This document shows, one piece after another, positions 14,610-52,873 of a DNA stretch of 64,000 nt. Positions within the stretch are counted from its first letter, which is position 1. Each line of letters begins with the position of its first letter. The DNA lies in assembly GCA_963665235.2 (NCBI GenBank), contig CAXXLX010000001.1:480001-544000 (forward strand), in the 5' to 3' direction. The notes below the pieces were generated by a model. That model was not told where the DNA came from and ran no database searches. It saw only the letters and a program-made list of their open reading frames with translations. A program made the translations under genes and the position numbers. The DNA comes from Candidatus Poribacteria bacterium. GTDB lineage: Bacteria > Poribacteria > WGA-4E > WGA-3G.

Positions 14610-14615
14610 GCTTAA

Positions 14616-15100: not shown

Positions 15101-15110
15101 AATTAATTAT

Positions 15111-15425: not shown

Positions 15426-15453
15426 TAATTATACGGTAGAGGTGTCGGTTTTG

Positions 15454-35722: not shown

Positions 35723-36840
35723 GATGTTTTCTCTAAAATCTCCTTTAATCTTTGTGCGATAATTTCCACTTCACCCGGCATCAAGGTTTGTCCGTTGATA
35801 AGTACGCCGTTTGTGCCTGCACCTGCAATATCTATAGAAGGTTCACCTTCAGCAAGTTGTTGGAGAATTTCGTCGCGTGTGATACCTATCTGTTCAGCGT
35901 CAAATCGGATTTCCGTTCGGGGCATAGGTTGTCCCGCCTCAGATGGGAAGCTTCGATGCACTGAAACTCCTCTGATGTCCTTAAACATCGACGTATAGTA
36001 GGTAACCTGAGCCTCGTAGGATTGCATCAATTGTGTGTGGTCTTGATTCAGGTACCATTCCACGGCAGCCAGCAAGCCGACCATCTCCTCTTTACCGACC
36101 TTCATGCCCCTACCGATGAAGGGATGCGGGGGACCGTTGAATGCAATCGCCTCAATCAGCGATTTTTTACCGACGATGAGTCCACTACTTTGCGGACCGC
36201 ACAACCCTTTTCCGCCGCTAAACAGAGCCAAATCTGCCCCGAGCTGTGTGAATCGCCACAAGTTTTCTGGCGGGGGCAGCTGTGCCGCGGCATCAACGAT
36301 AAGGGGGACACCGTGCCTTTTGGCAATTTCAATAGCCTTTTCGTACGGTACCCAGAGATGTGCTCTACTGGGGTTCGCGAAGTAAAAGATTGCCGCGGTC
36401 TTCTCCGTGATAGCACTTTCAAGGTCCTCAGGCGTTGTGCCGTTTTCATCTCCTATCTCCACGAGTGTGACACCGACCTGTCGCACGGCAAAATCGTATC
36501 CGACTCTACCGTGGCGATGCACAATGACCTCACTTTTCATAGAGTCGTCAAGATGGGGCAATTTCCCACGTTTGGCAGCATCTAATCCCGTGATACAAGC
36601 GGCAGTGCTGAGCGTCAACGCTGCTGCAGCACCGCAGGAAACATACGCTGCTTCGTTATGAGTGAGTCTCGCTATCTCTTCACCGACCCGCTTTTGGAGT
36701 TCAACAATATCCACAAAATGCTTTGAGGCCTCCGCCATCGCGGAGACGACTTCAGGCGGCATGATGGAGCCGCCGAGACGTGTCAACGTTGCGTTCCCGT
36801 TGATAACAGTGCGAATGCCTAAGCGTTTGTAGATTGACAT
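35719..36840 (-). CDS. SelA-like PLP-dependent enzyme
   Basis: VINGNATLTRLGGS, VDAAA, FSGGKGLCGPQSSG, GRGMKVGKE. Confidence 0.85.
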   Translation of the reverse strand: MSIYKRLGIRTVINGNATLTRLGGSIMPPEVVSAMAEASKHFVDIVELQKRVGEEIARLTHNEAAYVSCGAAAALTLSTAACITGLDAAKRGKLPHLDDSMKSEVIVHRHGRVGYDFAVRQVGVTLVEIGDENGTTPEDLESAITEKTAAIFYFANPSRAHLWVPYEKAIEIAKRHGVPLIVDAAAQLPPPENLWRFTQLGADLALFSGGKGLCGPQSSGLIVGKKSLIEAIAFNGPPHPFIGRGMKVGKEEMVGLLAAVEWYLNQDHTQLMQSYEAQVTYYTSMFKDIRGVSVHRSFPSEAGQPMPRTEIRFDAEQIGITRDEILQQLAEGEPSIDIAGAGTNGVLINGQTLMPGEVEIIAQRLKEILEKTS

Positions 36841-36848: not shown

Positions 36849-37654
36849 TTATCCGACCTCTTGGCCGTCCAATTTGCCGACGTGTAGGTCAATTTCATCG
36901 CGTGACTCAATTTTCTCAACCTTACCATCCGCCATGTGGAAAATCCGATCGGATACATCGAGCATCTTATGGTCGTGTGTTGCGGTGATAATAGTTACGC
37001 CGTTTTCGTCATTGAGTCGGCGGAGCAGTGCGATGATTTCAAGTCCGGTTTTGGTATCCAGGTTACCCGTAGGTTCATCCGCGAGGACAATCGCCGGGTC
37101 GTTAGCGAGCGAACGCGCAATTGCAACACGCTGCTGCTGCCCCCCGACAGTTCTAACGGTTTATGTTGCACACGGTCCCCCAATCCGACGAGCGAAAGCA
37201 GGTCAACCCCCTTGTCTCTACTTTCGTCAGCACTCATGCCAGCGAAAATCATCGGAAGAGAGACGTTTTCAAGAGCCGTCATGACAGGAATAAGGTTAAA
37301 CGATTGAAAGATATAACCGATTTTCCGACAGCGGAGCCACGCCAGCTCATAAGCGTCAAGTTGGGCGATGTCCACCTCGTCAATATAGACCCTGCCTTCG
37401 GTAGGTTTATCCAATCCGCCAATCATGTTAAAGAGCGTTGACTTCCCGGAACCGGAGGGTCCCATAATAGAGATGTATTCCCCGCGCTGGATTTGGAAGT
37501 TGACACCGCGGAGGGCATCCACAGTTTGCGTCCCCATTTCGTACCGTTTGATAAGGTTTCGGACGCGAACGGTATTCTCCTTCGGCAGGAGACGTTGAAA
37601 TCTTTCAGGTGTTTCAGTGAGTGTCCGTTGTCCACCGCCTATTTCTGTTTGCAT
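36849..37654 (-). CDS. LolD/MacB-type ABC ATPase, frameshifted in a G homopolymer near 37141
   Basis: GPSGSGKST; LSGG then QQQRVAIARSLANDPAIVLADEPTGNLD in the shifted frame. Confidence 0.88.
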
Positions 37655-37715
37655 ATCTATTTTTTCTCCTTTTGTGAGGCATGCAACGGGGAGACCATTT
37701 CGTTTTCGGTTTGCT

Positions 37716-40048
37716 TCAGGAATTAGCACGGTTTCCGGTATTTTGCTTAGCCTCTCGCAGCTGCTCGTATTTCTTCAAGAATTCGGTATGTGCATCCCGG
37801 ACCATGCGGAGTAAATCCGTATATCGCCTGATGTAGATTTGCGACTTCTCCAAATTTTTACGCTTTCCTCTTACGTAAGACGTATCAACCAAATCTCCGC
37901 AAAGGAGATACCCCGTAACCTCCTCAATTTTGTAGTTCGGGTCTGATGTTCGTTGAATATAGTCTCGCATAAAGATAACATAGTCCTCAATTTGGTGGAG
38001 TTCTTCCCGAGAAGCTCTCGATTTGGCCGTTTTATTTCCACAACGACTAGATGTGTGCTTGCTCGTACACAGAGGAAATCGATCCGTTTGTTTTCCGCTG
38101 GTACAGTGCTATCTTCCGGAAATTTATCGCGAAGTAATTGACTATAGGTGACTTCGTCAGCCACCAATGTCCAACGTGGGTCGATGACCCAAGGAAATTC
38201 TTTCAAGAAATTGTGGAGCGTTGGTACTTCCAGGGCGTTGTTTTCAATCAATTCCTGAAGTTTTTCTATGGTAGTTATCCGTCCTTTGGTAACGCGTGCC
38301 ATTTCTTTCGCTTCAACGATTTCCCATTCCCGGAATAAATTGAGAAGCGCATCGATATCTTCAAACGCCGTTTCAGTTAATTCTTCAGCGATTTCCCAAA
38401 AGGCATCGAACTCCAGAAAATCCAGACAGTTTTGGATAAGCGGCTCAAGCTCTTTGGTGTCAGCAATTGGATTTTTCGTAATTGCTTGACGGATGAGTTG
38501 GTCCGCTAGTTTCAATGCGCGCTTATTGCCTGTTGCTTCCGCTTGCTCCTTGAATTTAACATATTGTTCGTTTTCTTCCAACTGCTTTTCTTTATCCTGC
38601 CGGCGCTTTTTAGCCCACAAACTTGCGATTTTATTGACCTTTTTTGCTCCCCACTCTTTGAGAGCAGTATTAGCTTCTGTCTCCCAGACCAATGAGTTGC
38701 GCGTTGTGCTAATCGTATCCTCTCCTTCGTCAACAAATTCGGTATGGAGTTCACCAATAAGGTAAGAGAGCGCGTACTGCTGACCGACAACTGCGTCGAA
38801 AACAAACGGTTCTTGCACAAGTTTACCTCTCGCCATAAGGACAATGCCACGGTTTATTCCATCAATCTTTGATGTTGTTCGCTCTAGGGCTCCAATCCAA
38901 CCCGACACTGTCCAACCTGTTTCTTCCTCTATCTCCACATTATCGTACTCCCACAGGTACGGCTCACCGTTCATATCTTTTGCAAGTAGACGTTTCAAAT
39001 CCCGCTCCTCAACCGAGATTGGGGTACCGTTAATTATCACCTCAAAGTTGTGTTTTTCCCCAATGACAGCGAAACGTCTGGCGAGTCCTCTACGGATTGT
39101 GTCAATTGGAATACGGCGATTTTTGAATTTTGTGAAATATCTGAGTGTAATCTTTGTACCGATAGAGAACACTTTCAGTGGCAGGCAATCGCGGTAATTC
39201 AATAAATCGTTCATCTGCTTTTTCCAAGAGTTCGTCGTAATTCATTCGGAAATGGCTAACCTCTACAACATTTCCTTAGCGATACCAGCGGAAAATTTGC
39301 CAATACCTTTCCTACCCATGATTGGACGCTCGTGAGGCGGCGGTGTTTTGTCAACCTGCTCTTTTTCGCGCCGATCGCGACCGATAATCAAATATTTTTC
39401 TCGCACATCCCTATCTGACATACCGACACCATTATCACTAATGATGATTTCTGAAGTTTGTTGGTTAATTTGCCCCTCTGGGATTGTAATCTTAACTACA
39501 GTCGCATTTGAAAATTTGCCAATACCTTTCCTACCCATAGGAATTTTACGTTCGTGAGGTGGCTGTGTTTTGTCAACCTGCTCTTCCTCCCGCCGATCGC
39601 GACCGATAATCAAATATTTCCGCAATGAAATACCCCTATCTTGTGCTGGATGCACAAAGCGTCCAGAGTAAACATCCGCGCATGACATGCCGATACCATT
39701 ATCACTAATGATGATTTCTGAAGTTTGCTGATTAATTTGCTCCTCTGGGATTGTAATCTCAACTACAGTCGCATTTGCATCCCAAGCGTTTGCAACCAAT
39801 GTTTGGCATCAAGCAAATTCGCGTCAGCCCAAAAACCGTGCTGCTTTAGCATAGAGCAATTCTTCGTAAATTTCTTTTCCACAAGCGTTAATTCTCAACG
39901 AGAATAAAATCCGGAGGGCATTCTTCTACAATTCGCGCAAAGGCTAATAAAAGTACTTTCCGTACATCTGCAAACCGAGGTGTTTAATGGTCCCAATGTC
40001 AAACTTCATCTCGTAGGGGTTTTTCTTAGGAATTTCGGCTTGATGCAT
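37716..40048 (-). pseudogene. Fragmented GHKL (MORC/Hsp90-like) ATPase fused to a PD-(D/E)xK nuclease-like domain
   Basis: IKHLGLQMY, VANAWDANA, DNGIGM, GRKGIGK (duplicated), RIDFLC..VVEIKRP; multiple frameshifts. Confidence 0.75.
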
Positions 40049-40109
40049 AAAGTACCTCTTCAGAGTGTTCTATCAAATACAGCGGAGTCAACCAATTTTC
40101 ACGTGCCGC

Positions 40110-40574
40110 CTACTTTTTCTGTAGGAATCCAAAAAAGCCTCGCTTTTCGGGGACAGGTGTTGTTGCAGTATTCGGTTTCGCGTCTGTCGGTATAGCAAAT
40201 CCGATGAAATTCCGTTTACCGAGCTGTTGTATGAACGTAAAAAGCGACGTTTCCGCCTCCTTTCGGGTCAGTTGATGTTTCTTCTGGAGTGCCTTGATAA
40301 TCTGTGAAATGGTATGCTCCCCATCACACATCTGCCACACATACGCACCTATGCTATCTAGCACGACAACCCGTTTATCGGGAAGCATAAAGAGTTTACT
40401 TGTAAGCCGTATCCAGAATTTGTCTTTCTGCGGAATGACAAGTGAGGCTTCCCCTTTGTCGTCCATTTCCCACGTTATCAGCTGATTCCGTAACGGAAAG
40501 GCTTTGAGGATTTTACCTCTATCTACATCGGGACGTTTTTTGAGTTTAAGTGAATATAGAATTTTGTTGAGCAT
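40110..40574 (-). CDS. PqqD/RRE-domain protein
   Basis: LDSIGAYVWQMCDGEHTISQII..EAETSLFTFIQQL winged-helix signature. Confidence 0.85.
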   Translation of the reverse strand: MLNKILYSLKLKKRPDVDRGKILKAFPLRNQLITWEMDDKGEASLVIPQKDKFWIRLTSKLFMLPDKRVVVLDSIGAYVWQMCDGEHTISQIIKALQKKHQLTRKEAETSLFTFIQQLGKRNFIGFAIPTDAKPNTATTPVPEKRGFFGFLQKK

Positions 40575-40658
40575 GTGTTGTTTTTTTGCCTATTGTTCCA
40601 GTTACGTTCACCGCTAGCGAGGCGGAACTATATGGTGGGTAGGACGAAAACCGCTGCA

Positions 40659-41657
40659 TCAGTGACAATGGATGCTGTCGGCGACCTGTTGTGCTATCTT
40701 TTCAGCATCCACTCGCCCGATAGATTGCACCACATAAATCCGATTGGACTCATAACAGTGTCTTATATGAAAGACAAGCCTTGTCCGTTTGCGTAGTTTG
40801 TCCAATACCAGCACCGGTGCAATCGGGACATAATCGTAGAAGCGCGTCTGCTGTCCAATCAGCGTCAACCATTGGTCACCCTGTACGTCCTGCTGCGTGA
40901 CCTCAAAGCCGTATCCACGAATTGCCTTTGCGTACTTTGCCCGGAACCAAGTCTCTAGGGGTGTCGATTCAGTGCTGTATGCATTCAGCAAGACCTCGGC
41001 GGGGCCATAACGTTCTACGCTAATTTTTCGACTTTTTCCTTTGTTAAATGCAAATAACAGATAGCCGCTGAGCAGTTTCTGACGTTCCAATTTAAAGATT
41101 CTCGGGACAGCGAGCCTGAGTCCATAAGCACTCCAGAGGGTGTGTGTGTCCGTGGCACCGTAGTCAGAAATGGAGTGGAAGATATGTTGAACTGTGGGGC
41201 GCCAGTTCTCTTTCAGCCGTCCCATGACTTGTACGATGGTAATCCGCTTGGCAGTTGGGTTGTGCACAATTAACCCGTTGGCGCGGATACCCCCTTTCCA
41301 ACTGAAACCGATGACAGTTCTACCTTTTAAAAAATCTTCATCCTTGACGAGGTCAACATTTCTTCGGAAGGAGACCTCGCCGGTCCGCTTATAGTTTTTC
41401 CGGACTAATTTGAAGTATTCATCAAGCGTTTTATGGAGGTCAGGTTTTTTCTGACGTGATTTTGCCCATTTGAGTTCTAAGCGTGGCATCTCTGCATCAT
41501 CCATTCGGAGGTACCCATTTTTCTCATCCCCGCTGAGCCCGCTGATTTCCCATGTTGCCGGAATGTCTATTTGAATGCCTGCCCAACCAAATTTTTCAAA
41601 TTCTCTCGTTGAAGAGGATTCTGTTTTAGAGATAGAATCGGGTGATTTCTGCTTCAA
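40659..41657 (-). CDS. Hypothetical protein, co-oriented with the transporter operon
   Basis: 332-aa ORF; no recognised catalytic motif. Confidence 0.75.
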   Translation of the reverse strand: MKQKSPDSISKTESSSTREFEKFGWAGIQIDIPATWEISGLSGDEKNGYLRMDDAEMPRLELKWAKSRQKKPDLHKTLDEYFKLVRKNYKRTGEVSFRRNVDLVKDEDFLKGRTVIGFSWKGGIRANGLIVHNPTAKRITIVQVMGRLKENWRPTVQHIFHSISDYGATDTHTLWSAYGLRLAVPRIFKLERQKLLSGYLLFAFNKGKSRKISVERYGPAEVLLNAYSTESTPLETWFRAKYAKAIRGYGFEVTQQDVQGDQWLTLIGQQTRFYDYVPIAPVLVLDKLRKRTRLVFHIRHCYESNRIYVVQSIGRVDAEKIAQQVADSIHCH

Positions 41658-41691
41658 ATCGGCACCTCAGGATATAGCAAATAACCAAAGT

Positions 41692-42012
41692 TTAATCGCG
41701 TGTGGCAATTTGCTGCCACAACCGAATTGTTTTGTCGTCGCTTGCACTGGCGAGCGTTTTCCCATCGGGACTCCACGCTACTGAGTTGACATTATCTGTA
41801 TGTGCCATCAAAGTTTGCATGAGTCTGCCTGTGTGAGGCTCCCACAATTGAATTTTGTTGTCATTGCTTGTACTAGCGAGCCAACCTTCATTAGGATTCG
41901 GATTCCATGCCAGTAAAAACTCTACCCACCGAGGTATTGTATAACAAGCACTTAGTGATAAGATTACGGCAAACGAAGCGATCATTAACCAGATTAAGCG
42001 GTTTCTAAACAT
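41692..42012 (-). CDS. Short exported WD40-repeat protein, possibly truncated
   Basis: Signal/lipobox-like LSAC; HTDNVNSVAWSPDGKTLASASDDKTIRLW. Confidence 0.7.
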   Translation of the reverse strand: MFRNRLIWLMIASFAVILSLSACYTIPRWVEFLLAWNPNPNEGWLASTSNDNKIQLWEPHTGRLMQTLMAHTDNVNSVAWSPDGKTLASASDDKTIRLWQQIATRD

Positions 42013-42218
42013 ATTTCAATCTCCTCACAAGGCTGGCATGTGCTCTATTTTTTCTTACCTGATTTGTCCATGGTCTCAATTAAGCCATCACCTGCTTTAT
42101 TACATGAAATCGGCCGACAAACCGGCTGTTTCTATTGACAGTTTTCAGAAATCCACCACTTTCATCGGCATTTATTTTGAGGTATCCCTCAACAAATCCC
42201 TAACATCAGATTAAAAGA

Positions 42219-44207
42219 TTAAAACGGTTTAACGATAACAGCCTTAGAAACAAGGGCAATTGCAACAGTACCCATCCCTATCAATCCGACACCGCATGCG
42301 AATCCTGCTGCCAAAACCGGATTGAACATATACCATCGTTTCAAGCCGAACCGCTTAATCATATAGAATCTGCCGATAATTGCGCCGAGCAGTCGTGCCA
42401 CCATACTTCCTGGGTCCGCACCAATTCCGCCGATGATACCGTAGTACCACATAGAGGGATACTTGAAGACCCAGAGCAGCCCATAAATAGCGAGACTGGA
42501 GGTGAACCCCGCGGCGACATAATCCCCGCGGATAGCGTTCAGCATCTCACTATTTCCATCGCGTAGCGATGTTTTCCAGAGGCATTCATTAGTTGCATTA
42601 ATCGGCCACATCATCTGGACGTACGGATATTGTGCAGAAGGTATCGGCGCGATTTTCCAAATAAAGTGCAACACCACAATGCCACTAACGAGCAGAATTG
42701 GCATAATAAGCAGCGTGCCGGCAAGATTTGAGGTGAAGGTTGTGCCGGTGAGTTCTAACACACGCCAGCTCTGCGTTCCCTGTCCATAATCCTCATCCGG
42801 CAGCGGCGCGAACCAGATATCAATTTCTTCATACCGGCTCAGAATGAACGTAATCTCATGAAGGTACGGTATTTCAAACAGGTCGCGTCCGAGTACGCCG
42901 AAAGTTCTCGCCGTGATATAGGAGTTAAGCGGTGTGTATAAGAACGCGTATCCGAGTAAAAAGCTGAGCGGGAAGTTGGGGACCATCCAGTGGATGAGCC
43001 AAACAAATCCCCCCATCCCGATGAGCCAGAGGAGCCCCATTAACCATAGTGGAAAATCGCCTCGCCCGGGAGGTGTAGCCAGTGAACCGCGTTGCCCTGC
43101 CTTTTTCTTGGAACTTCGGAGTTTGAAAAGCATCGGAATAGAAGCCGCCATGCCGACGAGCCCGAGGCTAAACATTTTGCCCATGCCGTAGCTCATCCAG
43201 AAATCGAGGTTGTTGAAAAGTCCAACCCCCCGTACATCGAGCCCAGGGTGCCATTGCCACAGAATGCCGGATTTGTACAGAATTTGCGGGTTCAACACGA
43301 ATTGCGATAGCATCGCCGTAATGAACTCCGACATCATCACCGGGAACGGCATGACGAATCCGATAAGCATCTGTCCAAAATCGGTGCGGAGCGCAAAGAC
43401 CCCCGTTGGCGCGAACCCTTCAATGCTTTGTGTGAAGTCTATCCACGGGATTTTGAGTATCTGAATCGGTTGACTCATCATAACGCCGCTAAGCGCAGGA
43501 ACACCGATATAGATGAACCCCCAGATTAAGCCAGCCATGGAGCCGATGGAAAAGACTTGCCATCGCCAGGTTTCGTTTTTGCCCGTCGTTTCTGCAAGTG
43601 CGGTCGCGCCTTGTGCACTAATAGGTGCCATCGGGTAGGGGAGCCGTTCGAGGTCCGCTGTCAGCCGGAACAGGATGTACTGACCACTGACAAACCGCAA
43701 TGTACCGAGCAGCTTGCCAGCGAGATAGACCCCTATAGGTAGGAGCCAATCGGGGTGCAACAGACTGCGCGTTAGCACGCCTGCGGAATCACCAGCAGGC
43801 ACAACCCATGCGGGAATTTTGTCGGCGATTTCGTAGGACACCGCTTGCGGCGTGTTCACGAAATAGGCATACCAGATAAAGTTCCGGTATTGCATACCGC
43901 TGCCAACCGCGGCACCAGTGAGCCCGAGGAGCATATAGAGCTCCTGTCGGCGCGCAGTGGTAAAGGAACGTCTGGCTAATTCGGTGAAGAGTATGACAGC
44001 GACCCATGGGGCCGCCGCTGCACCGGATTGACCGGATACATAACTGAGATAGATGGAACCGGGCATCATGAGCAGCCCAACAAAGAGCGCGCCGAGGAAC
44101 ACTTTGAGCGTTAATCCGGATTCAAATTCCCGGACACCGCCTTCAATGTCGTACCGTTGTGCCCAAGTTTGCCATTCATCTGCCTGTGAGATTCGTTCTC
44201 TCGCCAA
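42219..44207 (-). CDS. OPT-like polytopic membrane transporter
   Basis: 662 aa with many hydrophobic segments; ERLPYPMAPISAQGATALA motif. Confidence 0.65.
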   Translation of the reverse strand: MARERISQADEWQTWAQRYDIEGGVREFESGLTLKVFLGALFVGLLMMPGSIYLSYVSGQSGAAAAPWVAVILFTELARRSFTTARRQELYMLLGLTGAAVGSGMQYRNFIWYAYFVNTPQAVSYEIADKIPAWVVPAGDSAGVLTRSLLHPDWLLPIGVYLAGKLLGTLRFVSGQYILFRLTADLERLPYPMAPISAQGATALAETTGKNETWRWQVFSIGSMAGLIWGFIYIGVPALSGVMMSQPIQILKIPWIDFTQSIEGFAPTGVFALRTDFGQMLIGFVMPFPVMMSEFITAMLSQFVLNPQILYKSGILWQWHPGLDVRGVGLFNNLDFWMSYGMGKMFSLGLVGMAASIPMLFKLRSSKKKAGQRGSLATPPGRGDFPLWLMGLLWLIGMGGFVWLIHWMVPNFPLSFLLGYAFLYTPLNSYITARTFGVLGRDLFEIPYLHEITFILSRYEEIDIWFAPLPDEDYGQGTQSWRVLELTGTTFTSNLAGTLLIMPILLVSGIVVLHFIWKIAPIPSAQYPYVQMMWPINATNECLWKTSLRDGNSEMLNAIRGDYVAAGFTSSLAIYGLLWVFKYPSMWYYGIIGGIGADPGSMVARLLGAIIGRFYMIKRFGLKRWYMFNPVLAAGFACGVGLIGMGTVAIALVSKAVIVKPF

Positions 44208-44222
44208 ATTGAAGATTCTCCT

Positions 44223-44423
44223 TTAGTCGGGTGAGTTGTCATCTGTATTCGTGTCGTTATTATTCTCTTCACTGAGTTCTTCCCAGAAGTGTGCCATGAA
44301 GATGCCGATAGTCAATATGAGTGCGGCGAACATCTGCCACTGCCAGCGACCCCCTAAGGCGAAAATACTGACGAACCATAAAACAGTCCCGATGATGATA
44401 ATAAGACTCGCTAATTTTTCCAT
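44223..44423 (-). CDS. Small two-TM membrane protein
   Basis: 66 aa, between the giant permease and the OPT-like gene. Confidence 0.6.
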   Translation of the reverse strand: MEKLASLIIIIGTVLWFVSIFALGGRWQWQMFAALILTIGIFMAHFWEELSEENNNDTNTDDNSPD

Positions 44424-44456
44424 AGTTAATAGGTATCAGAGTGTATGCCTACTCCC

Positions 44457-47400
44457 TTAATCTGCTGTCGTCATGACAGGCTCTAATTGTCCGGTGCCCT
44501 CCTGTGTATCGGCACTTTCAGTTCGCCCGCGTTCATGGAATTCTGCTCGAACATCAACACTAAATGTCCGCCAAATCAGCAGCTGTTTCCGCAACAGATT
44601 GAGGAAGCGACGGTTCACCCGTTTCCAAGACGCTATCTCGCCACTTTCACGGTGAACATCTAAGGTAATTTGGTAAAGATCTTCCTCTTCTCCACCGACC
44701 GGTGAGGTAACAAATTGGATGGATTGACTGACCCCCAGGTCGTAAGGTGCCAACCAGACCCGCATACCGATTTGGTAGGAGTGTTCCTCTGATTGCGCGG
44801 CGTCTGTATCTGTAGCGACCGTGCTGAAAGTGACATTGTCAGTATAGAAGTCGCTTGCGGACTCATCAGCGTGTGCGTCGAAGTAGTCCCGCATGAACAC
44901 ATTTAAACCGAGTGCCTCCTCCTGTAGCACGGTAAACGGCAGGTTAAAGTGCCAAACATCGCCCTCCGGTTCCGGCAGTTTCCATTTCCGTTCAATATCC
45001 GGCACCGCCATGCGGGAAGCTTTCAGGGCGGGATAAAGCGTACTGAGCAGCACCACAATCATCACGATAACTGTGGCGACCACCGTTGACATTGAAGAGT
45101 AGTTCAACGTCAATCCGGCAAGCCAGCCGAAGTATACCAATGTTGTTGCAATAGCTTGTCCCATGAGATAACCGAGGACTGCCCCGACAATCGCATAGAC
45201 ACAAGCTTCAGCGAGGAAAAGAAACGCGATATGGACGGGGGCAAGCCCAACCGAACTGTAAATTCCGATTTCGCGCACGCGTTCATAAACCGCCCCGAGC
45301 ATCGTATTTAAGACAATCAGTGCAGCAATCAGAATCGGGACGAAGAGGTTGCCCATGCCGCTAAAACTGGTCATGCCGATACTGCTGTAAAGATAGGTGT
45401 CTTTGTCCCGTCCGACAAAGAAATCTAAAGCGATGCGGTTCATCAGCGGTGCCATAATGAGGTCAAGTTTATCAATTGACGTTAAGAGCGTTGGGTCGTC
45501 CGGTTGAGGCTCCATGTTGACAGCGACACTTCTCAGCGTTCCACCCTGATTCATGACCACCTGATATGGGAGCACGGCAATACTATCCGGGGTGAGGTGA
45601 AGATATTTCTGAAGTTCACCTTCAAGCGTTTCATCACCCGTTCCGCCTCGGCTCCGTTGCTGTTGCATCAATTGATAATCGACGGGGGTGAGTTCCTCCC
45701 CATCGTTATCTGTCAAATCCTTGAATCCGATGCCGAGTACACCGACGACAGTGAAATCCGCCCCGTAAACAGAGATTGTCGCTTTGCCCATGTCGCTTTC
45801 CGTAATTTTCAGGAGGTCCGCCATCCCTTTCGGAAGGATAATTGCGTAGGGCCACTCAGTCGGCCAAGTGTGTGCATCCACGCGATCGAACCATTTTCCG
45901 TATTGAAGATATCGATGGATACCGGTGACTGTGGGTTCCATCTCACTCATCCCGACGAGCATGTTTGCAGCAAAACTCGGGAGTTCCCCCGTAAGGGGAT
46001 GTGTGGGCGGGACTGGGTCGTGGGTGTTGCTGCTTCGCGTCAATTGCACAAACGATTGGTCCCCGGTTCCCGACGACTGATACCATGCGCGCGGAGCGAC
46101 GACGTTCTCCACGGTGAGGACCGGTTCTTCGTCAACGGTTTTGATAAACCCATCTTCTCTCAATGTAGCAATTGCGGCAGGAATGTCGACCGGTGTCTGT
46201 CCCTGCTTCTTGAGCCGTTCGTTTTTCTGTTCCAAAAGCCGTTGTAGTGCGTCAACCGTAATTTGTGTTTTCTGCATATCGTTGAGAATAGAGTTCAGCA
46301 CCGGTTCTTCAAGCGGCCGCCAGTATTGGTCGCGAATAAGCAAACCTGTATAGCGAGGCGTTACCTGCGGCAGACTCGTCCGGTTCGGGCGTAGGAACGT
46401 CCGCACCGATGTGAACGATATGACAGTAAACGTTAGGATAACGAGCGTGGCGCAGGTAAGGATAGTCCGTCCTTTGCGTTTGCGCATATTCGAGATACCG
46501 AGGCTAAACGCCGCTGCACTGGCACTCAGTCTGCCAACATCAGCTTTGTAAACCTTATGGTCCCCCTGCTGGCGGATTTTCTCAAGCTGCTCCTCGAATT
46601 TTCTTACAATAATGCTGATAACAATCACGGTCAGTGCAAGCACAACGAACGCAATCAGGATAATCACAGGCGTTGTCGTTATCTGGAACGCCGGATGTAC
46701 CTGGCTTAGGAAGAAGAAGACTAACAGAAAAATGCCAAAGGTTGCTATAATCTGTTTGTGAATGTTAGGGAAACCGAAGAGCAGCCGTTCCATAAAGTAT
46801 GCAAACGGCATCAAGAGCGCGAGATAGAACATAATCCCGTTCACTACATCGTTGCCTGTGCTTTTCACATCTGGATATGCCCGCGATTCGTACCCCCAGG
46901 CCGCCCGTGCTAATTTGAGGGCTTGTTGATAATCGTTTTGAAGGAGTGCCGTCTCCGCGCGGGTGAGGTATTCGTTAGCGAATTGGTGCAGTTTGTCAAG
47001 ACGGTCGCTACTGATACCGAACCGCTTGTAGAGCCGGGAGCGGTTTTCATCGAGCCACCACATATCGCGAACCACGACATAGGGTGTTAGGCGGATGCTA
47101 CCGTTTTCTCGGACGACGAATCCTTCTCCTGTATAGAGCGTCGGATTTTTCATACCGCTTTTTGTCGCTTTAATTAACAGCAACCGTTTGCCGATTTGCC
47201 CATAAGCCATCCCGACTTTAATACGTTTCTGCGGTTCGCTATAAACCAGGGCAATCGGTTCAGCTGCAGAGACACCCTCCTGTTGCCACGGCTTGGACAT
47301 ACCGAATTTCTCTGGCGGACTATCCGAGAGGGCATCGTATATCTCTAATTCTCGGAGGGTTCGGAGGTACCGTTGGTCGACCAGGTCGTAGATAGTCGTG

Positions 47401-50400
47401 GAAACGCAGGGAAACGTTACCACTCGGCAGCCACGTCTGCGGGTATTGATTGGAACTTTGTTAGGCAGCAGTTTCGCGCCGTAATTTCCGAGGTCGGGGG
47501 CATACACGATATCGCCTGAATCTGGGTCAAGGATATACGCCTCAACCTCTTGTGCCCCGCCTAGTCTGCGTGTTGCCCTACCTTCCATTGCAAGGCCTGC
47601 CACCTCAAAATTGCCCTTGTTATCGCCCATCGCGAAGAGGTCCCCGCGCACCCCCATCATTGTCTTGTGTTTCCGGCGGAGCGTCAAAATAGGATAGGAT
47701 ACCGGCTTATTCGGGAGTGCTGAATCGCGGGCATCAAATTCAACCACATCGCCGAAGAGGTTGCAATAGAAATTACCGACCCGTGCAGCGGTCGGCATTT
47801 GCGGGTCCCGCAAGGCCTGAATGAGTAAAGAGGCTAATGTTTTTGCTTGCTGATGCAGATTACCATCTTCGCGTAGGTCAACCCGTTCAATTGTATCCAG
47901 AGGCGTATCTGTCAGGACACGCGCATCTTCAATCGTTGCAAAGGCTATACCTGTTTTTCCGACTAACGTTGCCACTTCACTATCAAAGGCGATCTTTCCG
48001 GGGATGTAGGTTTTCCACGTCTTGCCGCCGCTAGCAGAAATGGCATTGACAAAGTTAGAGCTGCCCCCAAGTCCAACGATAGAAATTAGCGTTCTAATGT
48101 CCTCTATTTCATCTTCGGTGAAGGTATCCGGGTCTTCGTGCCGGAGCCTAAGCATTGCGGGGAGTTGTGCTATCATGCGGATGCTATTTTTTCGGCTTTT
48201 CTTTGCATTGCGGACATCGTTTCGGATAAACCGTTCCACCTCTTTACGGATGTAGTCCATATCCTTCAGCATATCTTCAGACGGTTCTCCGCGGTGTTGC
48301 CACTGTTCGAACTGCATTCTCATCAGGCGGCTGACTCCCCCTAATCCCGTTAATTTGCCGTAGTGTGCGCTGAGCAGGGTTTCAAGGGTTTTCCCTTCAA
48401 GTGCTTCCTTGTCCGAAATTTGGCTAGCGACACCCCATTGGCGGGCCATCACAGCTTGTCGGATTTGGTCATCCGTTGCTTGCCACAGTTTTCTCACACG
48501 GACACCGAAATCCGCATCCGCCGCATAGGCCGCTAATTTATTTCCGATGCTTGCAAATTCACGCCGCAGCACAAACTCGGGTTGCTGGTCATAGAACCAC
48601 CCTTTGTTAAAAACACCAAATTGGTTCGATTGCGAAGAGAGGTCGATGCTACAAAAGAGCGAGGTATAATAGCGGTTGAAAAGGTCTTGAAGGGCAATCG
48701 CAGCTTCAATCTGTGCAATTTTGTCGTTGTATTCCGCCTCACTAATCCGCACCATTTTTTCCACACGACTCTGAATGTTCCGAAGCCTTGCATTCCTCAA
48801 CGTCAACATGTTGTCCCGGAGGAGCCGTTTGGTCTCTGCATTGAGGTCGGATGTGAGCGTTGGTAACTGGATTATGAGATTTTTGAGCGCGTTCACATCT
48901 GCTGTGGCACCCTGCTTCACTGTCTGTAGCAGGTGTTCTTCTGCCAAATATGCGGATATAGCCGCGCGTGCTACTTCTGCCTGCTCAACTTCAGCACTTG
49001 ACAGGTAGCTCTCTAAAATAAGCCGTTCCTCCGCTAAATATCCACGGGCTAGCGTCGCGTGTGATTCAAGCAGTTTTTCAAGCCGTTCCTGTTCGAGGCG
49101 GGCGTTGCGAAGCGCAATTTCAAAGATGCCCTGCTTATCTCGGACGAGGTCAGCAATAAGGATGTCGGTACTTTCTCCGCCGCCCACTACATCTTTAGAC
49201 GTTCTCTCCTGAGCACGTTCTTCCGTTAAACGTTGCCGGAGTTGAGCGTTTATTGCGTCTATCCGTTCTCGAGAGTTTTTCGTAAGATAGCGGATTTGCA
49301 AATCGGGTGTCAAGGTATGTTCAGGCGTGTCGCGCAGCGCATTGATAGCCGCCTTAATTTGGTTAGCGGGCATAGCCGTATCGCCAAGAGGCTCCTGCTG
49401 ACTGTCGCCGGATAACTGCCGACGGCTAACGAGTGCCTGCTGTGCTTTCAAGAGGAGAGCTTGCTCTTGGGCGATACTCGCTTCACGCGACGCAGTTGCT
49501 GAGTTGCCTATAAGCCGGCGGGCATCTCTCGCTTTTTTCAGGTCGGGCAGATTCAGGTGCCGGTCTAGGATTTTATCCGGTGTCCACATCAACGCAAACT
49601 TTCGCGTGTCGCTCAGCTCCCAATTGGCAAGTGTTTTATTGAGTAGTTCTATGTCCGGTATCAATTCAGGGGGCAAATCTGTCGGTGTCGGTATCTCATA
49701 ACCATCATTTCGTTTCACTGGCAATAGGTATGATGTCCTTGGATGCGTTCCGTATCCATCGCTCAGTTTGCCCGCTTGAAGCTCGCGCTCCAGCTTGTCC
49801 ACTGCCCAGGTGTCCAATCGGGCGATAGGTAAGGCGATAGTCTCTATCAATTCACGTTGCGCGGTTCGGCTGCTGTCTAAGGCAGATGTACGGACCTGTG
49901 CAAGTCGTTGCACAATATGTCGGAGAAAGTGTGTTGTTTGGAGTGCCTCTTTTTCAAATCGGATAAGGTTTGCGTTACGTTTTGATTTTTCCTCTTCCGT
50001 GAATCCCTGCTTTTCCCGTTTCCTATTTCGTGTGACCCGTTTTTTCTGCTGTTCAGAGAAATCGCGTTGCGCTGCATGCAGCGACTCAATTTGTGAACGT
50101 GTCGTTGCCAAGGCTGTTAACGTTGTTGCCAGTGAGTCTATGTCCGCTTTCACGCCGTGTATATCGTGAAAGAAATCCGCAGACAGGTCGACGAGCGTGC
50201 TTCGGTCGATTGAGAGGAGCAGTTTGCGTCCTAATTCTTCGAATTCAATAATATCGTTGGATAACCCACGTCTGAGTCCTTGCAAAGTCGGTGTTCCTGG
50301 GGAATCGGTTGCGGACCCGACAATATCTTGTCCGATACCTTCCATGAATGCGCGCATGCCTGCTAAACCTTGGAAATGCGCGTCAACCGCCACAAAGAGG

Positions 50401-51839
50401 ACAGAACGTCCTGGACGGTATTCAGGTTTCTCGAACAAGCGTGCAAGTTCCATAAGCACCGCAATCCCGCAGGTTGGGTCAGCCCCAGGGGCAATTGCGG
50501 GAACAACAGACATGGAATCATAGTAAGCGGTGAGGACGACCAATTCATCCCGCAAGATAGGGTCACCGCCTTCAAGGAAACCTCGGATATTTTGTCCAAC
50601 CCGGCGTTCCCATGTCATTTTACCGCTGACACGCACGTTAACTTCGCTATTAGAGAGCCGTTCTTTTAGTGCGGCTGCATCCGATTTTGTAATCCAAAAC
50701 CGGGGAATGTTTGCGGGAACGGTGAGAAATTTGTTCTCTGCTTCACCACGGATAGTTGTTTCCGGTTCAATAAAAACAACTGCCGATGCTCCTAACATCG
50801 CGGCATTAATCCAACGTGTCCCGGAATTAAACGCTGTCAAGACTATCGCGCCCTTTGGTATGAAAATGTCGGCCTCGCTTGCAGCAATGAATTCACCGAC
50901 TTCGTCAATCTGTCCATCTTTATTGTTATCCAGTCCATCTGTCGCATCGCCCGGAATTTCGTCTGTCCAGCCGTTCGCGTTATTGTCAATGCCATCTGTT
51001 CCCCACCCTACGATTTCAGAGAGCAGCGGAATTTCGCCATATTCATCAACCATCCCATCTTCATCGTTATCAATACCATCAGATGCCTTCTGAAGGTGGC
51101 CGTTCAGAACATCGTCCGTAATACTCGCTTGTGTGACGCGATAACGTCTCGATAGGGTAGAGAGCGTATCCCCCACCTGAAGCGAATACCAGAAACCGCC
51201 CACATTGCTGCCGTTGAAATCTGATAGTTGTGCATCGTCAACGTCCAACAGCGGCCCCGTGAGCCCCCCTGTCGGTATAAAAACCGTGTCACCTACCCCG
51301 ATAGGAGTGGATAGGAAGCGGTTTCGTGAATTCTCCACGATGTCTGTCAAGGAGACAGCATAACTCTCCGCAATCTCCTCCAAAGTTTCACCCGCTTCAA
51401 CCGTATGTTTCACCCCATCCGCTATGAGAGATGTCCTGACGAGGTTGGGCCACAACGGTTTGAGCGTGAACGTCTCCAGCACTGTTCCATCAGGCGCAAG
51501 CACCTCCAGCGCACTATTCCCGTGGTCAATGGGAACGGTGATTGAAAACTCACGGCTCTCTACGTTCTGCAAACCGCTCTCGACAAAACGGTCAAAGACG
51601 TATTTGCTGCCACTAGCTGCTTGCGGGTAGCCTGTGACGCGACTGGAGAGACTCGCCATGCGAGCGAGGTCTTTCCGAATATTGCGAATGGAGAGTTCAC
51701 CACGAATTTGGATGGCAGCCGCCGATAAACCGAGGGCACGTTCTCCTTCCGCTGCATAGCAGCTCTTGGGAGTCGGGTTGAACGCAGAAAAACCCGACAA
51801 GAAAATTAATAGAGTTATAAGGACATATATCCGATTCAT
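44457..51839 (-). CDS. Giant membrane protein: two LysM, Asp-rich Ca-binding-like repeats, M28-like peptidase fold with long helical insertion, FtsX permease domain
   Basis: HTVEAGETLEEIAESY, YSLQVGDTLSTLSRRY; DG(I/L)DNxxxGxxDE three times; VLTAYYDS..APGAD..ELAR; VYERVREIGIYSSVGL. Confidence 0.8.
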   Translation of the reverse strand: MNRIYVLITLLIFLSGFSAFNPTPKSCYAAEGERALGLSAAAIQIRGELSIRNIRKDLARMASLSSRVTGYPQAASGSKYVFDRFVESGLQNVESREFSITVPIDHGNSALEVLAPDGTVLETFTLKPLWPNLVRTSLIADGVKHTVEAGETLEEIAESYAVSLTDIVENSRNRFLSTPIGVGDTVFIPTGGLTGPLLDVDDAQLSDFNGSNVGGFWYSLQVGDTLSTLSRRYRVTQASITDDVLNGHLQKASDGIDNDEDGMVDEYGEIPLLSEIVGWGTDGIDNNANGWTDEIPGDATDGLDNNKDGQIDEVGEFIAASEADIFIPKGAIVLTAFNSGTRWINAAMLGASAVVFIEPETTIRGEAENKFLTVPANIPRFWITKSDAAALKERLSNSEVNVRVSGKMTWERRVGQNIRGFLEGGDPILRDELVVLTAYYDSMSVVPAIAPGADPTCGIAVLMELARLFEKPEYRPGRSVLFVAVDAHFQGLAGMRAFMEGIGQDIVGSATDSPGTPTLQGLRRGLSNDIIEFEELGRKLLLSIDRSTLVDLSADFFHDIHGVKADIDSLATTLTALATTRSQIESLHAAQRDFSEQQKKRVTRNRKREKQGFTEEEKSKRNANLIRFEKEALQTTHFLRHIVQRLAQVRTSALDSSRTAQRELIETIALPIARLDTWAVDKLERELQAGKLSDGYGTHPRTSYLLPVKRNDGYEIPTPTDLPPELIPDIELLNKTLANWELSDTRKFALMWTPDKILDRHLNLPDLKKARDARRLIGNSATASREASIAQEQALLLKAQQALVSRRQLSGDSQQEPLGDTAMPANQIKAAINALRDTPEHTLTPDLQIRYLTKNSRERIDAINAQLRQRLTEERAQERTSKDVVGGGESTDILIADLVRDKQGIFEIALRNARLEQERLEKLLESHATLARGYLAEERLILESYLSSAEVEQAEVARAAISAYLAEEHLLQTVKQGATADVNALKNLIIQLPTLTSDLNAETKRLLRDNMLTLRNARLRNIQSRVEKMVRISEAEYNDKIAQIEAAIALQDLFNRYYTSLFCSIDLSSQSNQFGVFNKGWFYDQQPEFVLRREFASIGNKLAAYAADADFGVRVRKLWQATDDQIRQAVMARQWGVASQISDKEALEGKTLETLLSAHYGKLTGLGGVSRLMRMQFEQWQHRGEPSEDMLKDMDYIRKEVERFIRNDVRNAKKSRKNSIRMIAQLPAMLRLRHEDPDTFTEDEIEDIRTLISIVGLGGSSNFVNAISASGGKTWKTYIPGKIAFDSEVATLVGKTGIAFATIEDARVLTDTPLDTIERVDLREDGNLHQQAKTLASLLIQALRDPQMPTAARVGNFYCNLFGDVVEFDARDSALPNKPVSYPILTLRRKHKTMMGVRGDLFAMGDNKGNFEVAGLAMEGRATRRLGGAQEVEAYILDPDSGDIVYAPDLGNYGAKLLPNKVPINTRRRGCRVVTFPCVSTTIYDLVDQRYLRTLRELEIYDALSDSPPEKFGMSKPWQQEGVSAAEPIALVYSEPQKRIKVGMAYGQIGKRLLLIKATKSGMKNPTLYTGEGFVVRENGSIRLTPYVVVRDMWWLDENRSRLYKRFGISSDRLDKLHQFANEYLTRAETALLQNDYQQALKLARAAWGYESRAYPDVKSTGNDVVNGIMFYLALLMPFAYFMERLLFGFPNIHKQIIATFGIFLLVFFFLSQVHPAFQITTTPVIILIAFVVLALTVIVISIIVRKFEEQLEKIRQQGDHKVYKADVGRLSASAAAFSLGISNMRKRKGRTILTCATLVILTFTVISFTSVRTFLRPNRTSLPQVTPRYTGLLIRDQYWRPLEEPVLNSILNDMQKTQITVDALQRLLEQKNERLKKQGQTPVDIPAAIATLREDGFIKTVDEEPVLTVENVVAPRAWYQSSGTGDQSFVQLTRSSNTHDPVPPTHPLTGELPSFAANMLVGMSEMEPTVTGIHRYLQYGKWFDRVDAHTWPTEWPYAIILPKGMADLLKITESDMGKATISVYGADFTVVGVLGIGFKDLTDNDGEELTPVDYQLMQQQRSRGGTGDETLEGELQKYLHLTPDSIAVLPYQVVMNQGGTLRSVAVNMEPQPDDPTLLTSIDKLDLIMAPLMNRIALDFFVGRDKDTYLYSSIGMTSFSGMGNLFVPILIAALIVLNTMLGAVYERVREIGIYSSVGLAPVHIAFLFLAEACVYAIVGAVLGYLMGQAIATTLVYFGWLAGLTLNYSSMSTVVATVIVMIVVLLSTLYPALKASRMAVPDIERKWKLPEPEGDVWHFNLPFTVLQEEALGLNVFMRDYFDAHADESASDFYTDNVTFSTVATDTDAAQSEEHSYQIGMRVWLAPYDLGVSQSIQFVTSPVGGEEEDLYQITLDVHRESGEIASWKRVNRRFLNLLRKQLLIWRTFSVDVRAEFHERGRTESADTQEGTGQLEPVMTTAD

Positions 51840-52480
51840 TAAACACCTTAAAGGCAAATATCGCCGTTTCTTGATAAAAAATTCTTTCATCTTAAAGTTC
51901 ACATTTTTATTATACCAAAATTCTTAAGTTTTTGTCAACAAAAAAAAATAAAAAACGGATGTGTCAACATTTTGTACTTATGTGTCAGTCTACCCTATAG
52001 CTCTCCACCGTTTGTAAAAAATGACGTTGTGATATTTGGGGCATGAGCTTAGTCGGGGCCTACAACGGTGGCATACATCCAAAAAACGGATACGTCATTT
52101 TGGGTTTCCACGCCTCCATTCCTATATCTATCCTTTGGGCCTCCAAAAAGTTTACACATCCCCAAAAAACGTTCCCCCTTCCCACCTATTCGTTTGACAA
52201 AAATTTTACATATCAAAAAAAAATTTGCTTTTTAACGTTTTTTAGGTTAAAATATATTTAACGTTTTTATTCTGTTTCATCTTTTTTATCGGACCTGTGC
52301 TATCGGTTCGCTTAAAAAGTTGAAAGAAAAAAACACGGTTCACGATACACAGACAGATTCCAACTGTCAACGTATCCTGCTTAGCCTGATAATAAGAGCG
52401 AGTTTCTGCTCGCGATTTTTGTGTCAAAATTTTCTAAACGTATACACTGCTTTATTTACAACGAATGAAAGGAAACAGTT

Positions 52481-52873
52481 ATGAGTAAAGATGAAACCGT
52501 CTCTCGGATAAAAAAACGGCGGCTTGAACTAAGCATGACACAGACCCAGTTAGCGAAAATCGCAAACTTAACACCTGCAGCCATCTCACAGTTCGAGTCT
52601 GGGACCCGCAAACCCTCTTTTAACACGCTCGCTGGCCTGTCCGAGGCCCTAAAGGTAACAACAGATTATCTTCTCGGTAAAGAGGAATTGCGATACGATG
52701 ACCTTCTTGCGGACCCGAAGGTTAGTCTCATGTTTAGAGGCATGATGGAATTCACAGAGCGCGATAAGGAAACCCTCTATGAGTTCTATAAATTCCTCAA
52801 GACACAAGCGGATGATGCTACATCAGATGCCACATCAGATGCTACATCAAGTGAAGGTTCATCGGGTCAATAA
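52481..52873 (+). CDS. XRE-family HTH regulator
   Basis: RIKKRRLELSMTQTQLA..ISQFESGTRKP..TTDYLLG. Confidence 0.92.
   Translation: MSKDETVSRIKKRRLELSMTQTQLAKIANLTPAAISQFESGTRKPSFNTLAGLSEALKVTTDYLLGKEELRYDDLLADPKVSLMFRGMMEFTERDKETLYEFYKFLKTQADDATSDATSDATSSEGSSGQ

Follow-up and report, generated by a model that had tools for sequence, protein, structure and literature searches.

The gene cluster and the question it raises

What is the function of a run of co-oriented genes, in the genome of a sponge symbiont of Candidatus Poribacteria, that encodes a giant permease, a membrane protein resembling oligopeptide transporters (OPT-like), a 332-aa protein, a PqqD-type protein and an ATP-binding cassette (ABC) ATPase? 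The stretch of DNA analysed here (hereafter the window; 64,000 nt) had been given a preliminary description, in which these genes were taken for an operon of peptide or protein processing and translocation at the cell envelope, and all of the genes named there were recovered on the minus strand by calls of open reading frames (ORFs), Pfam and NCBIfam. The reading we favour is that the cluster represents a new branch of the type VII ABC mechanotransducers. That it is an uncharacterised, vertically conserved envelope module around a type VII (MacB/FtsX-type) ABC system, working by the receptor, OPT and adaptor mechanism proposed below, is possible, and we hold this reading with somewhat less than even confidence. 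No core protein reaches an NCBIfam equivalog cut-off, and no description of the module was found in the limited collection of literature searched.

Domains in the window ORFs were called with Pfam and NCBIfam, and 34 of these ORFs were scanned against Pfam. Residues of the giant are numbered on the 2481-codon ORF, and 21 is to be subtracted for the 2460-aa protein. The features of the cluster are the following:

44457-51902, minus strand: ORF of the giant permease, 2481 codons from a GTG, with Pfam LysM, partial Peptidase_M28 and FtsX
44457..51839, minus strand: giant gene in its 2460-aa form, from ATG 51839, matching the protein database entry
50340..51680, minus strand: N-terminal part of the giant, a putative M28/PA-like pseudo-peptidase ectodomain, residues 75-521, including a Poribacteria-specific insertion (166-345)
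48378..50222, minus strand: charge-rich insertion of the giant, residues 561-1175, about 600 residues
46848..48377, minus strand: conserved ectodomain region of the giant without a fold match, residues 1176-1685
44460..46847, minus strand: membrane and cytoplasmic part of the giant, with three extra transmembrane (TM) helices, a MacB/FtsX-type four-TM module and a 190-residue C-domain
44223-44423, minus strand: 66-aa protein with two hydrophobic segments (ORF call and hydropathy)
42219-44207, minus strand: 662-aa polytopic OPT-like protein, its OPT affinity coming from relatives
41692-42012, minus strand: 106-aa WD40 fragment (Pfam)
40659-41657, minus strand: 332-aa protein, a predicted tandem of PsbP/Mog1-like domains (structure model and Foldseek)
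40110-40574, minus strand: 154-aa PqqD/RRE protein (PF05402, E 1e-11)
39263-39799 and 37871-39214, minus strand: two ORFs of a decayed BbrUII/HgiDII-type restriction enzyme (Pfam/NCBIfam)
36849-37729, minus strand: MacB/LolD-type ABC ATPase, frameshifted (Pfam/NCBIfam)
35719-36840, minus strand: DgaE/SelA-like pyridoxal phosphate enzyme (NCBIfam)
35012-35722, minus strand: UPF0173-type hydrolase of the metallo-beta-lactamase (MBL) fold (NCBIfam)

Conservation of the cluster across phyla

Alignment of the family of the 662-aa OPT-like protein against the species-representative genomes of GTDB gave at least 564 relatives, and the best 80 matches, which correspond to 75 loci, were analysed; 67 of these loci are of the Poribacteria type and eight are others (five Armatimonadota, two Planctomycetota and one Desantisbacteria). 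The order giant, OPT-like, 332-aa, PqqD and ABC is kept in every evaluable one of the 67 Poribacteria-type loci: the giant gene lies upstream of the OPT-like gene in 66/66, and the 332-aa, PqqD and ATPase genes lie downstream in 65/65, 62/62 and 61/61, respectively. Junction insertions of more than 400 bp are common in the relatives (13/65, 8/65 and 7/63), with the gene order still kept.

Outside the Poribacteria, the five core families occur together in an Armatimonadota locus (L075) and in the Desantisbacteria locus (L073), where the identities to the window proteins are 39-42% for the giant, 41-45% for the OPT-like protein, 24-25% for the 332-aa (PsbP-tandem) protein, 37-38% for the PqqD protein and 70-75% for the ATPase. 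Giant and OPT-like genes are adjacent in six of the seven non-Poribacteria loci that could be judged, and the pair is also present in Planctomycetota. The gene contents of these loci are as follows:

L075 (Armatimonadota): giant, OPT-like, PsbP-tandem, PqqD, small FtsX, ABC
L073 (Desantisbacteria): PsbP-tandem, PqqD, small FtsX, ABC, DUF6785/6784 protein, giant, OPT-like; rearranged, still clustered
L070: giant, OPT-like, PsbP-tandem, on a short contig
L067, L071 and L074: giant, OPT-like
L072 (Armatimonadota, Zipacnadia): contig starts at the OPT-like gene, with PsbP-tandem 4 kb off, directly after a FtsW/RodA gene
L069 (Armatimonadota): OPT-like alone

The small FtsX permeases of L073 and L075 (223-280 aa, with no large external domain) are additional to the giant, are mutual orthologues and are absent from Poribacteria; their genes lie at 969-1640 and 13338-14180, respectively, and the DUF6785/DUF6784 gene of L073 lies at 2708-4729.

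From these comparisons, the genes constitute a conserved module and not a chance neighbourhood, and the cluster, at least as the giant/OPT pair, is distributed in at least four bacterial phyla. The preliminary description was to be abandoned if the genes proved not to be syntenic in other genomes or if the cluster corresponded to a transporter already characterised; it was borne out in this respect, since the genes are syntenic in other phyla and the cluster maps to no characterised transporter. It is very improbable that the genes are mere neighbours with unrelated functions in a cluster decaying in this genome. Such a view could appeal to the frameshift in the ATPase gene of the window, to mobile or decayed insertions at three junctions and to the solitary OPT-like gene of L069; however, the order is kept in every evaluable one of the 67 loci despite the insertions, the cluster recurs in two further phyla (rearranged in L073), and the ATPase is intact in 63/63 relatives.

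The SelA-like and MBL genes, described previously as following the cluster, are indeed tightly packed after the ABC gene here. They are, however, subclade-specific neighbours and not part of the core: the former was found in 36/67 and the latter in 38/67 Poribacteria-type loci, and both in 0/8 of the others.

The permease module of the giant

By hydropathy, the giant has three TM helices at 1686-1765, one at 1813-1831 and three at 2187-2289, with a 355-residue external loop between the helix at 1813-1831 and that at 2187. The MacB-type module corresponds to residues 1813-2289 and is followed by a conserved cytoplasmic domain of about 190 residues at the C-terminus (2290-2481). The FtsX family (PF02687) matches at 2188-2298 with 47.1 bits (cut-off, 25.5), a family profile of residues 1640-2481 matches MacB at 2e-16 and also LolF, YtrF and LolC, and the coupling-helix motif ERxREIG is kept in the giant family. 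No MacB_PCD match was found in the window giant at E<=0.01; this domain exceeds its cut-off of 27 in the orthologues of L062 (39.5 bits) and L073 (32.7 bits). Taken together, the FtsX match, the MacB profile match, MacB_PCD in the orthologues and the ERxREIG motif indicate that the C-terminal half of the giant is a type VII ABC permease module.

The giant remains far below the NCBIfam equivalog cut-offs (31 versus 473 bits for LolC, 29 versus 966 for MacB and 21 versus 250 for FtsX_actino). We also considered an internally duplicated FtsX permease of the ADOP/YbbP style and rejected it, with an hhalign probability of 0.4% for 1669-1779 against 2169-2309.

The ectodomain of the giant

A signal anchor at 18-36 precedes an ectodomain of about 1,650 residues (37-1685; layout from hydropathy). 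The Pfam Peptidase_M28 match covers residues 438-521 and reaches only profile positions 1-78 of 193. The window giant aligns weakly (E 1e-3 to 5e-2) to the PDB structures of Vibrio aminopeptidase, GCPII, NAALADase-L, transferrin receptor and Nicalin. Four residues of the Vibrio enzyme, which we take to be zinc ligands and the general base, are all replaced in the giant (His97 to Tyr, Asp117 to Pro, Glu151 to His and Glu152 to Phe); these are all of the alignable metal and catalytic positions, and the remaining two metal ligands fall outside the usable alignment. The Armatimonadota orthologue of L075 aligns over 280 residues to the PA-domain M28 aminopeptidase 2ek8 (E 5e-9), with weak matches to YwaD and Nicalin, and shows the changes H to Y, DD to ES and EE to GH relative to 2ek8. 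The M28-like domain is thus best read as a pseudo-peptidase that has lost its alignable metal and catalytic residues. The processing activity formerly ascribed to it is unlikely, as the four alignable positions are all replaced here and the losses in L075 are equivalent.

The blocks shared with the 1529-aa L075 and 1634-aa L073 orthologues are 75-210, 350-521 and about 1175/1284-2475. The insertion at 166-345 holds LysM and three DGxDNxxDGxxDE repeats, and the segment 561-1175, which is an alignment gap in both orthologues, is rich in EKRQ (28%) and poor in G+P (6%), with heptad-like patches by a crude score, and is probably helical or coiled-coil. Both the LysM-bearing and the probably helical insertion are Poribacteria-specific, and the latter seems to split the M28-like domain in that phylum. 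The L073 giant carries an F5/8 type C (discoidin) domain in place of LysM. Residues 1176-1685 are conserved across phyla, and the ectodomain region 1160-1700 gave no PDB match at E<=0.1 and no Pfam match; judging from the M28 motifs, the start of 1176-1685 probably completes the M28-like domain. Of the LysM/M28-like/FtsX giant of the preliminary description, all three Pfam domains are present; M28 appears degenerate, and LysM is restricted to Poribacteria.

The giant, an FtsX-type permease onto which LysM, a long segment that is probably helical and a degenerate peptidase are fused, parallels EnvC, whose coiled coil and LytM domain are under the control of FtsEX (PMC7668044). The cluster could, on this basis, be a self-contained regulator resembling FtsEX-EnvC, in which the ATPase would act through the helical stalk on the degenerate peptidase so that this binds and activates a peptidoglycan hydrolase encoded elsewhere, with the OPT-like protein taking up the freed wall peptides. 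A hint of a cell-wall link comes from the single case of L072 (4868-6973; Armatimonadota), in which the PsbP-tandem homologue starts one base after the end of the FtsW/RodA gene. We nevertheless consider such a regulator unlikely. The LysM and helical insert are found in Poribacteria only and are absent in L073 and L075, and thus cannot be what the ancestral function was built on; the cluster has no conserved hydrolase gene; nothing in FtsEX systems corresponds to the OPT-like, PqqD and PsbP-like proteins; and the ATPase scores higher against LolD, YbbA and MacB than against FtsE.

The 332-aa and PqqD proteins

The 332-aa protein belongs to no Pfam or NCBIfam family, and its own family comprises 643 representative clusters at E<=1e-3. 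Its AlphaFold2 model, built with an alignment of 78 sequences, has a mean pLDDT of 92.3, and a Foldseek search with this model gave PsbP (E 4e-6 and probability 1.00, with target-normalised TM-scores of 0.54-0.66) as well as the two-domain type VI secretion system immunity proteins TplEi/Tli4 (E 1e-5), Mog1 and Apa. The two halves match each other with an hhalign probability of 97.8%, indicating an internal duplication. The modelled protein thus consists of two PsbP/Mog1-like domains, in the sense of a shared fold and without membership in the sequence families. A Cys/His pattern (C..C..DH / H..C..CH) is complete in 51 of the 78 family members, whereas the window protein keeps the second set only; the pattern is suggestive of metal sites. 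DUF1795, a family of the Mog1/PsbP fold, is an effector-associated accessory protein, and the fold, which accessory and immunity proteins of type VI secretion share, is typically a protein-protein interaction module (PMC4524185).

The PqqD protein (154 aa) matches PF05402 with 45.5 bits (cut-off, 23.4) and lies below the cut-off of every NCBIfam PqqD-type model. A profile of its family matches the PqqD structure 3g2b (4e-6) and TbiB1 (1e-5), a recognition element (RRE) for a lasso peptide; a conserved N-terminal extension (P-x-R-N...W-E) lies outside the PqqD model. Neither this protein nor the 332-aa protein has a hydrophobic segment or signal, so that both are presumably cytoplasmic.

A PqqD/RRE protein could belong to an exporter of a peptide that is bacteriocin-like or similar to the peptides that are made on ribosomes and modified after translation (RiPPs): it would bind the leader, the MacB-type pump would expel the peptide, and the OPT-like protein would be the conduit. 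DarBCD, the MacB-type exporter of darobactin, is an analogue, and the ATPase of the cluster resembles DarD and the ATPase of a bacteriocin exporter, though with scores under the respective cut-offs. In addition to the PqqD/RRE membership itself, this alternative can draw on the recognition of precursor peptides by RREs, peptide-binding domains with a cleft between alpha3 and beta3 (PMC12710340). It is quite unlikely, however, because the clusters of Poribacteria, L073 and L075 contain no conserved gene for a precursor peptide, a modifying enzyme, a membrane-fusion protein or an outer-membrane duct, and the 66-aa ORF is a membrane protein found in Poribacteria only. Neither a radical SAM nor a YcaO family was found among the 34 scanned window ORFs, and no combination of RiPP precursor and modifying enzyme (radical SAM, YcaO or lasso cyclase) was found in these ORFs or in the L062, L073 and L075 clusters. 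The PqqD protein, as originally supposed, stands alone without RiPP enzymes, both among the scanned ORFs and in the other phyla.

The OPT-like and 66-aa membrane proteins

The 662-aa protein has at least 10 hydrophobic segments, and its homologues are 57-96% identical across Poribacteria, the closest (92-96%) being proteins of Poribacteria metagenome-assembled genomes. PF03169 is found on five of the 120 homologues listed for it, one of which is 71% identical to the window protein; two of 17 aligned relatives match OPT (best E, 7e-8), and the L075 orthologue has 24.3 bits against the OPT cut-off of 25.8, or 1.5 bits short. The nearest Atlas clusters are named 'peptide transporter family', with OPT on 17-33% of their members. 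As these relatives indicate, the 662-aa protein is probably a distant branch of the OPT superfamily. A relationship to the DUF6785/DUF6784 protein of L073 was examined and rejected (hhalign probability, 0.2%; the Atlas feature resemblance is weak, 0.86-0.88).

The OPT-superfamily affinity of this permease bears on a further alternative, that is, nutritional peptide capture and import, in which the ectodomain would bind extracellular peptides by their free N-termini and hand them to an OPT-like importer, from which they would reach the cytoplasmic binders. The M28/PA fold normally binds peptide N-termini, and the carbohydrate-binding accessory domain varies among lineages (LysM in Poribacteria, F5/8 type C in L073), both of which would fit import. 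Still, there is no catalytic machinery for making peptides, MacB-type ATP-driven modules are not known to serve importers, and the cytoplasmic adaptors play no part in the peptide uptake systems known so far; we regard import as quite improbable.

The 66-aa protein has two hydrophobic segments and an acidic tail. Its gene gave tblastn matches in 61/67 Poribacteria-type loci and in 0/8 of the others, and its median ratio of nonsynonymous to synonymous substitution rates (dN/dS) is 0.09 (17 evaluable pairs, with dS near saturation); it appears to be an accessory confined to Poribacteria. Together with the identities of the OPT-like homologues, this value puts the features of the cluster well outside what chance would produce.

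The interrupted ATPase gene and insertions at the junctions

The ATPase ORF that begins at 37729 contains a Pfam ABC_tran match and matches the NCBIfam models of LolD, YbbA, MacB, DarD and FtsE only as far as the signature motif. This N-terminal piece is below the equivalog cut-offs (141 versus 308 bits for LolD and 114 versus 265 for FtsE). The remainder (QQQRVAIA... to Walker B and the H-loop) runs on in a different frame down to 36849. At the G6 run of 37140-37145, which lies inside the LSGGQ signature, the window has TCGGGGGGCAG, 11 nt, in contrast to the 12 nt TCN GGN GGN CAG of every relative, and in 63/63 relatives having both halves these adjoin each other in a single reading frame. 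The window ATPase is thus broken by the loss of one base in the G run inside LSGGQ, which means either that the system is inactive in this genome or that the assembly contains a homopolymer error. The other suspicious ORF overlaps in the window contain no long homopolymer runs.

The 'ATPase-nuclease remnant' noticed previously between the PqqD and ABC genes is present and can be identified more closely: it is a decayed restriction-modification island, of which only a restriction enzyme of the BbrUII/HgiDII type, combining a GHKL ATPase with a nuclease, is left, broken into two pieces and containing a 220-267-bp tandem duplication at 39291-39777. At the same junction in L013 (8321-12854) the island is intact, consisting of a C5 methylase, a 655-aa BbrUII/HgiDII-type GHKL enzyme and an N6/N4 methylase-HNH protein, and L003 also matches a restriction-modification island at about 13600-18400. 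The PqqD-ABC junction is a recurrent insertion site for this island.

The WD40 fragment has a lipoprotein-like signal and about 1.5 WD40 repeats and lies inside an insertion of about 560 bp between the OPT-like and 332-aa genes, a junction with a median of about 69 bp in the relatives. A tblastn comparison with the 75 related loci gave no match to it, and it is not part of the module.

Proposed mechanism and its weight

MacB/FtsX-type permeases are described as mechanotransducers and not classical transporters; MacB, LolCDE, FtsEX and YbbAP act through mechanotransmission on the envelope side. Of the preliminary description, the placement at the envelope holds, and the translocation machine is a conjecture. 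If the cluster is a new branch of these systems, ATP binding and hydrolysis in the cytoplasm would be relayed by the FtsX module into movement of the ectodomain, as in FtsEX, LolCDE, MacB and YbbAP. Some relatives of M28 resemble receptors (the transferrin receptor, nicastrin and Nicalin), and the pseudo-peptidase might likewise serve as one, taking up a peptide or protein ligand at the cell wall and letting it go again. In Poribacteria the giant would be held on peptidoglycan by its LysM domains, with the long helical insert as a stalk, and the F5/8 type C domain would take the accessory place in Desantisbacteria. The ligand would pass to or from the neighbouring OPT-like permease, acting as membrane conduit or partner, and the PqqD domain and the PsbP/Mog1 tandem may hold the peptide, or dock on the permease or the ATPase, at the cytoplasmic face.

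A more specific version of this proposal is an envelope machine of a kind not recognised before, in which a type VII ABC mechanotransducer with a nicastrin- or transferrin-receptor-like pseudo-peptidase receptor would be physically coupled to an OPT-superfamily permease, the ATP cycle would gate capture of a peptide or protein ligand and its transfer between wall and cytoplasm, and the PqqD-type RRE and a Zn-binding PsbP/Mog1 tandem would be cytoplasmic peptide chaperones. We consider this version doubtful.

Several observations weigh against the reading of the cluster as one module of this kind. Eight non-Poribacteria loci were examined among at least 564 OPT-like relatives; in one of the eight (L069) the OPT-like gene occurs without the giant, and two with the giant/OPT pair (L071 and L074) have no 332-aa or PqqD gene in the flanks examined. 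As the small FtsX is present in L073 and L075 but not in Poribacteria, the phyla differ in their set of subunits. The cluster has no conserved gene for a candidate substrate, the ATPase gene in the window is broken, and the OPT assignment is weak for the window protein, which has no Pfam match even at E<=1.

If the specific version were true, an RRE would be working in transport and not in RiPP biosynthesis, which matters for genome mining that uses RREs as RiPP markers, and the cluster would be the first OPT system energised by an ABC ATPase. There are few type VII ABC systems, each with a task of its own (efflux, lipoprotein extraction, hydrolase control and lipid extraction), and a new branch would widen the range of what the mechanism powers, bringing a 1,650-residue receptor-like ectodomain and three new types of partner. 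It would also give a first functional context to a large bacterial OPT-like family and to the 643-cluster family without a Pfam model. The module is universal in the Poribacteria, a phylum of sponge symbionts; Armatimonadota and Planctomycetota, where it occurs too, include cultured species, so that experiments on it may become feasible should a cultured carrier turn up.

Upstream region and neighbouring features

Two features lie directly upstream of the cluster:

51909..51938, minus strand: sigma-70-like promoter (TTGACA, 18 nt, TATAAT, with TG), immediately before the giant gene
52481..52873, plus strand: gene of the XRE family with a helix-turn-helix (HTH) domain (Pfam HTH_3), divergent from the giant gene

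The promoter (51938-51909) is the sole 12/12 sigma-70-like match in the region; the total of sigma-70-like matches is no higher than in shuffles (20 versus 19.5), and by a crude motif search the promoter is not conserved (2/49 related loci). The GTG at 51902 is too near the -10 element, so that the true start of the giant is ATG 51893 or ATG 51839, the latter giving the 2460-aa giant with the length of the protein database entry. An XRE homologue is present upstream of the giant in 26/67 Poribacteria-type loci, and the gene is possibly a local regulator. Beyond it lies an ImmA/IrrE (M78) metallopeptidase gene (53403-54356, plus strand), with a homologue in six loci.

Four secreted-looking proteins encoded at 24973-25698, 25864-26631, 27385-28230 and 28391-29233 (plus strand) share a tail, K(L/T/A)(T/A)TTWGxxK followed by 3-4 residues; two have LamG_3 domains, and there is a weak TafC-fimbrial match. 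No family was found for this TTWG tail, nor any literature on the motif. A regular-expression search found 43 tails in long ORFs at 31 loci, and many close Poribacteria loci, but not distant ones, have genes of this kind just past the MBL gene and oriented opposite to it. In L058 (4300-6100), a deep Poribacteria-type locus, the giant-OPT junction contains about 1.8 kb of small ORFs and a TTWG-tail gene fragment. The TTWG-tail LamG proteins, put forward earlier as candidate substrates, were dropped as an unsupported lead: they are near the cluster only in close Poribacteria, the LamG protein beside the L073 cluster lacks the tail, and the link comes down to synteny within a subclade.

A second, ordinary MacB_PCD+FtsX permease (414 aa) is encoded at 21107-22351 (plus strand), between GFO/IDH/MocA oxidoreductase genes (19995-21062 and 22370-23404), with no ABC ATPase among the scanned neighbouring ORFs. 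A protein with a cohesin domain and a C-terminal sorting domain of the type IX secretion system is encoded at 11748-14609 (plus strand), and proteins with Ig-like repeats, one ending in a dockerin, at 15442-19352 (plus strand); together these resemble a cohesin-dockerin pair, here in one of the Poribacteria. The region 31147-34944 (plus strand) encodes a 1265-aa protein with the P-loop motif GEPGIGKT and no Pfam or NCBIfam family, with homologues in 3/75 loci. A TnpB/IS605 OrfB gene lies at 57659-58948 (minus strand). The sole Rfam match is to HEARO (IscB-associated) RNA at 52866-52991 (plus strand; 29 bits versus a gathering score of 83, E 0.011) and is probably due to chance.

Comparison with known systems

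The PqqD protein resembles the PqqD/RRE group (PqqD and lasso-peptide B1 proteins) in its PF05402 match and in the profile matches to the PqqD and TbiB1 structures, and differs in having its own N-terminal extension and in the absence, in the phyla examined, of neighbouring radical SAM, YcaO, lasso or PQQ genes. Each half of the modelled 332-aa protein matches the fold of the PsbP/Mog1 proteins (PsbP, Mog1, Tli4/TplEi and the DUF1795 Eag proteins), and the predicted two-domain layout is like that of Tli4/TplEi; however, the sequence identity is 8-15%, and the protein has no Pfam family, no signal sequence and Cys/His motifs specific to its family. With the OPT family (PF03169), the 662-aa protein shares the size (about 660 aa) and the polytopic character, and a minority of its close relatives reach the Pfam model; the window protein has no model match and, in Poribacteria, is always paired with the giant permease.

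In the case of the M28-fold receptors (transferrin receptor, nicastrin and Nicalin) and GCPII, the giant has the M28/PA fold in common, matches the sequences of GCPII, NAALADase-L, transferrin receptor and Nicalin weakly, and appears to have lost the catalytic residues as in the receptor members; it differs in being bacterial and fused to an ABC permease, and nicastrin is not among the matches. The LytM domain of EnvC is degenerate. As in the giant, the FtsX-type module of FtsEX-EnvC (with PcsB, CwlO and RipC) is connected with a helical stalk and, at the wall, with a degenerate domain of a peptidase fold, and mechanotransmission via the periplasmic coiled coil to the LytM domain is documented there (PMC7668044). 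In the giant, in contrast, all of these are fused in one chain, the dead domain is M28/PA and not LytM (M23), and LysM and the helical parts are lineage-specific.

In short, the cluster shares with the type VII ABC systems (MacAB-TolC, LolCDE, FtsEX-EnvC and YbbAP-TesA) the four-TM module of the FtsX type, in which TM1 and TM2 are separated by what is probably a periplasmic domain and the coupling-helix motif is kept, and the separate LolD/MacB-like ATPase. It differs from them in the four extra TM helices, the 1,650-residue N-terminal ectodomain and the 190-residue cytoplasmic C-domain of its giant, and, while it has no partner of the MacA, TolC, LolA, EnvC or TesA type, it has an OPT-like protein, a PqqD protein and a PsbP/Mog1 tandem.

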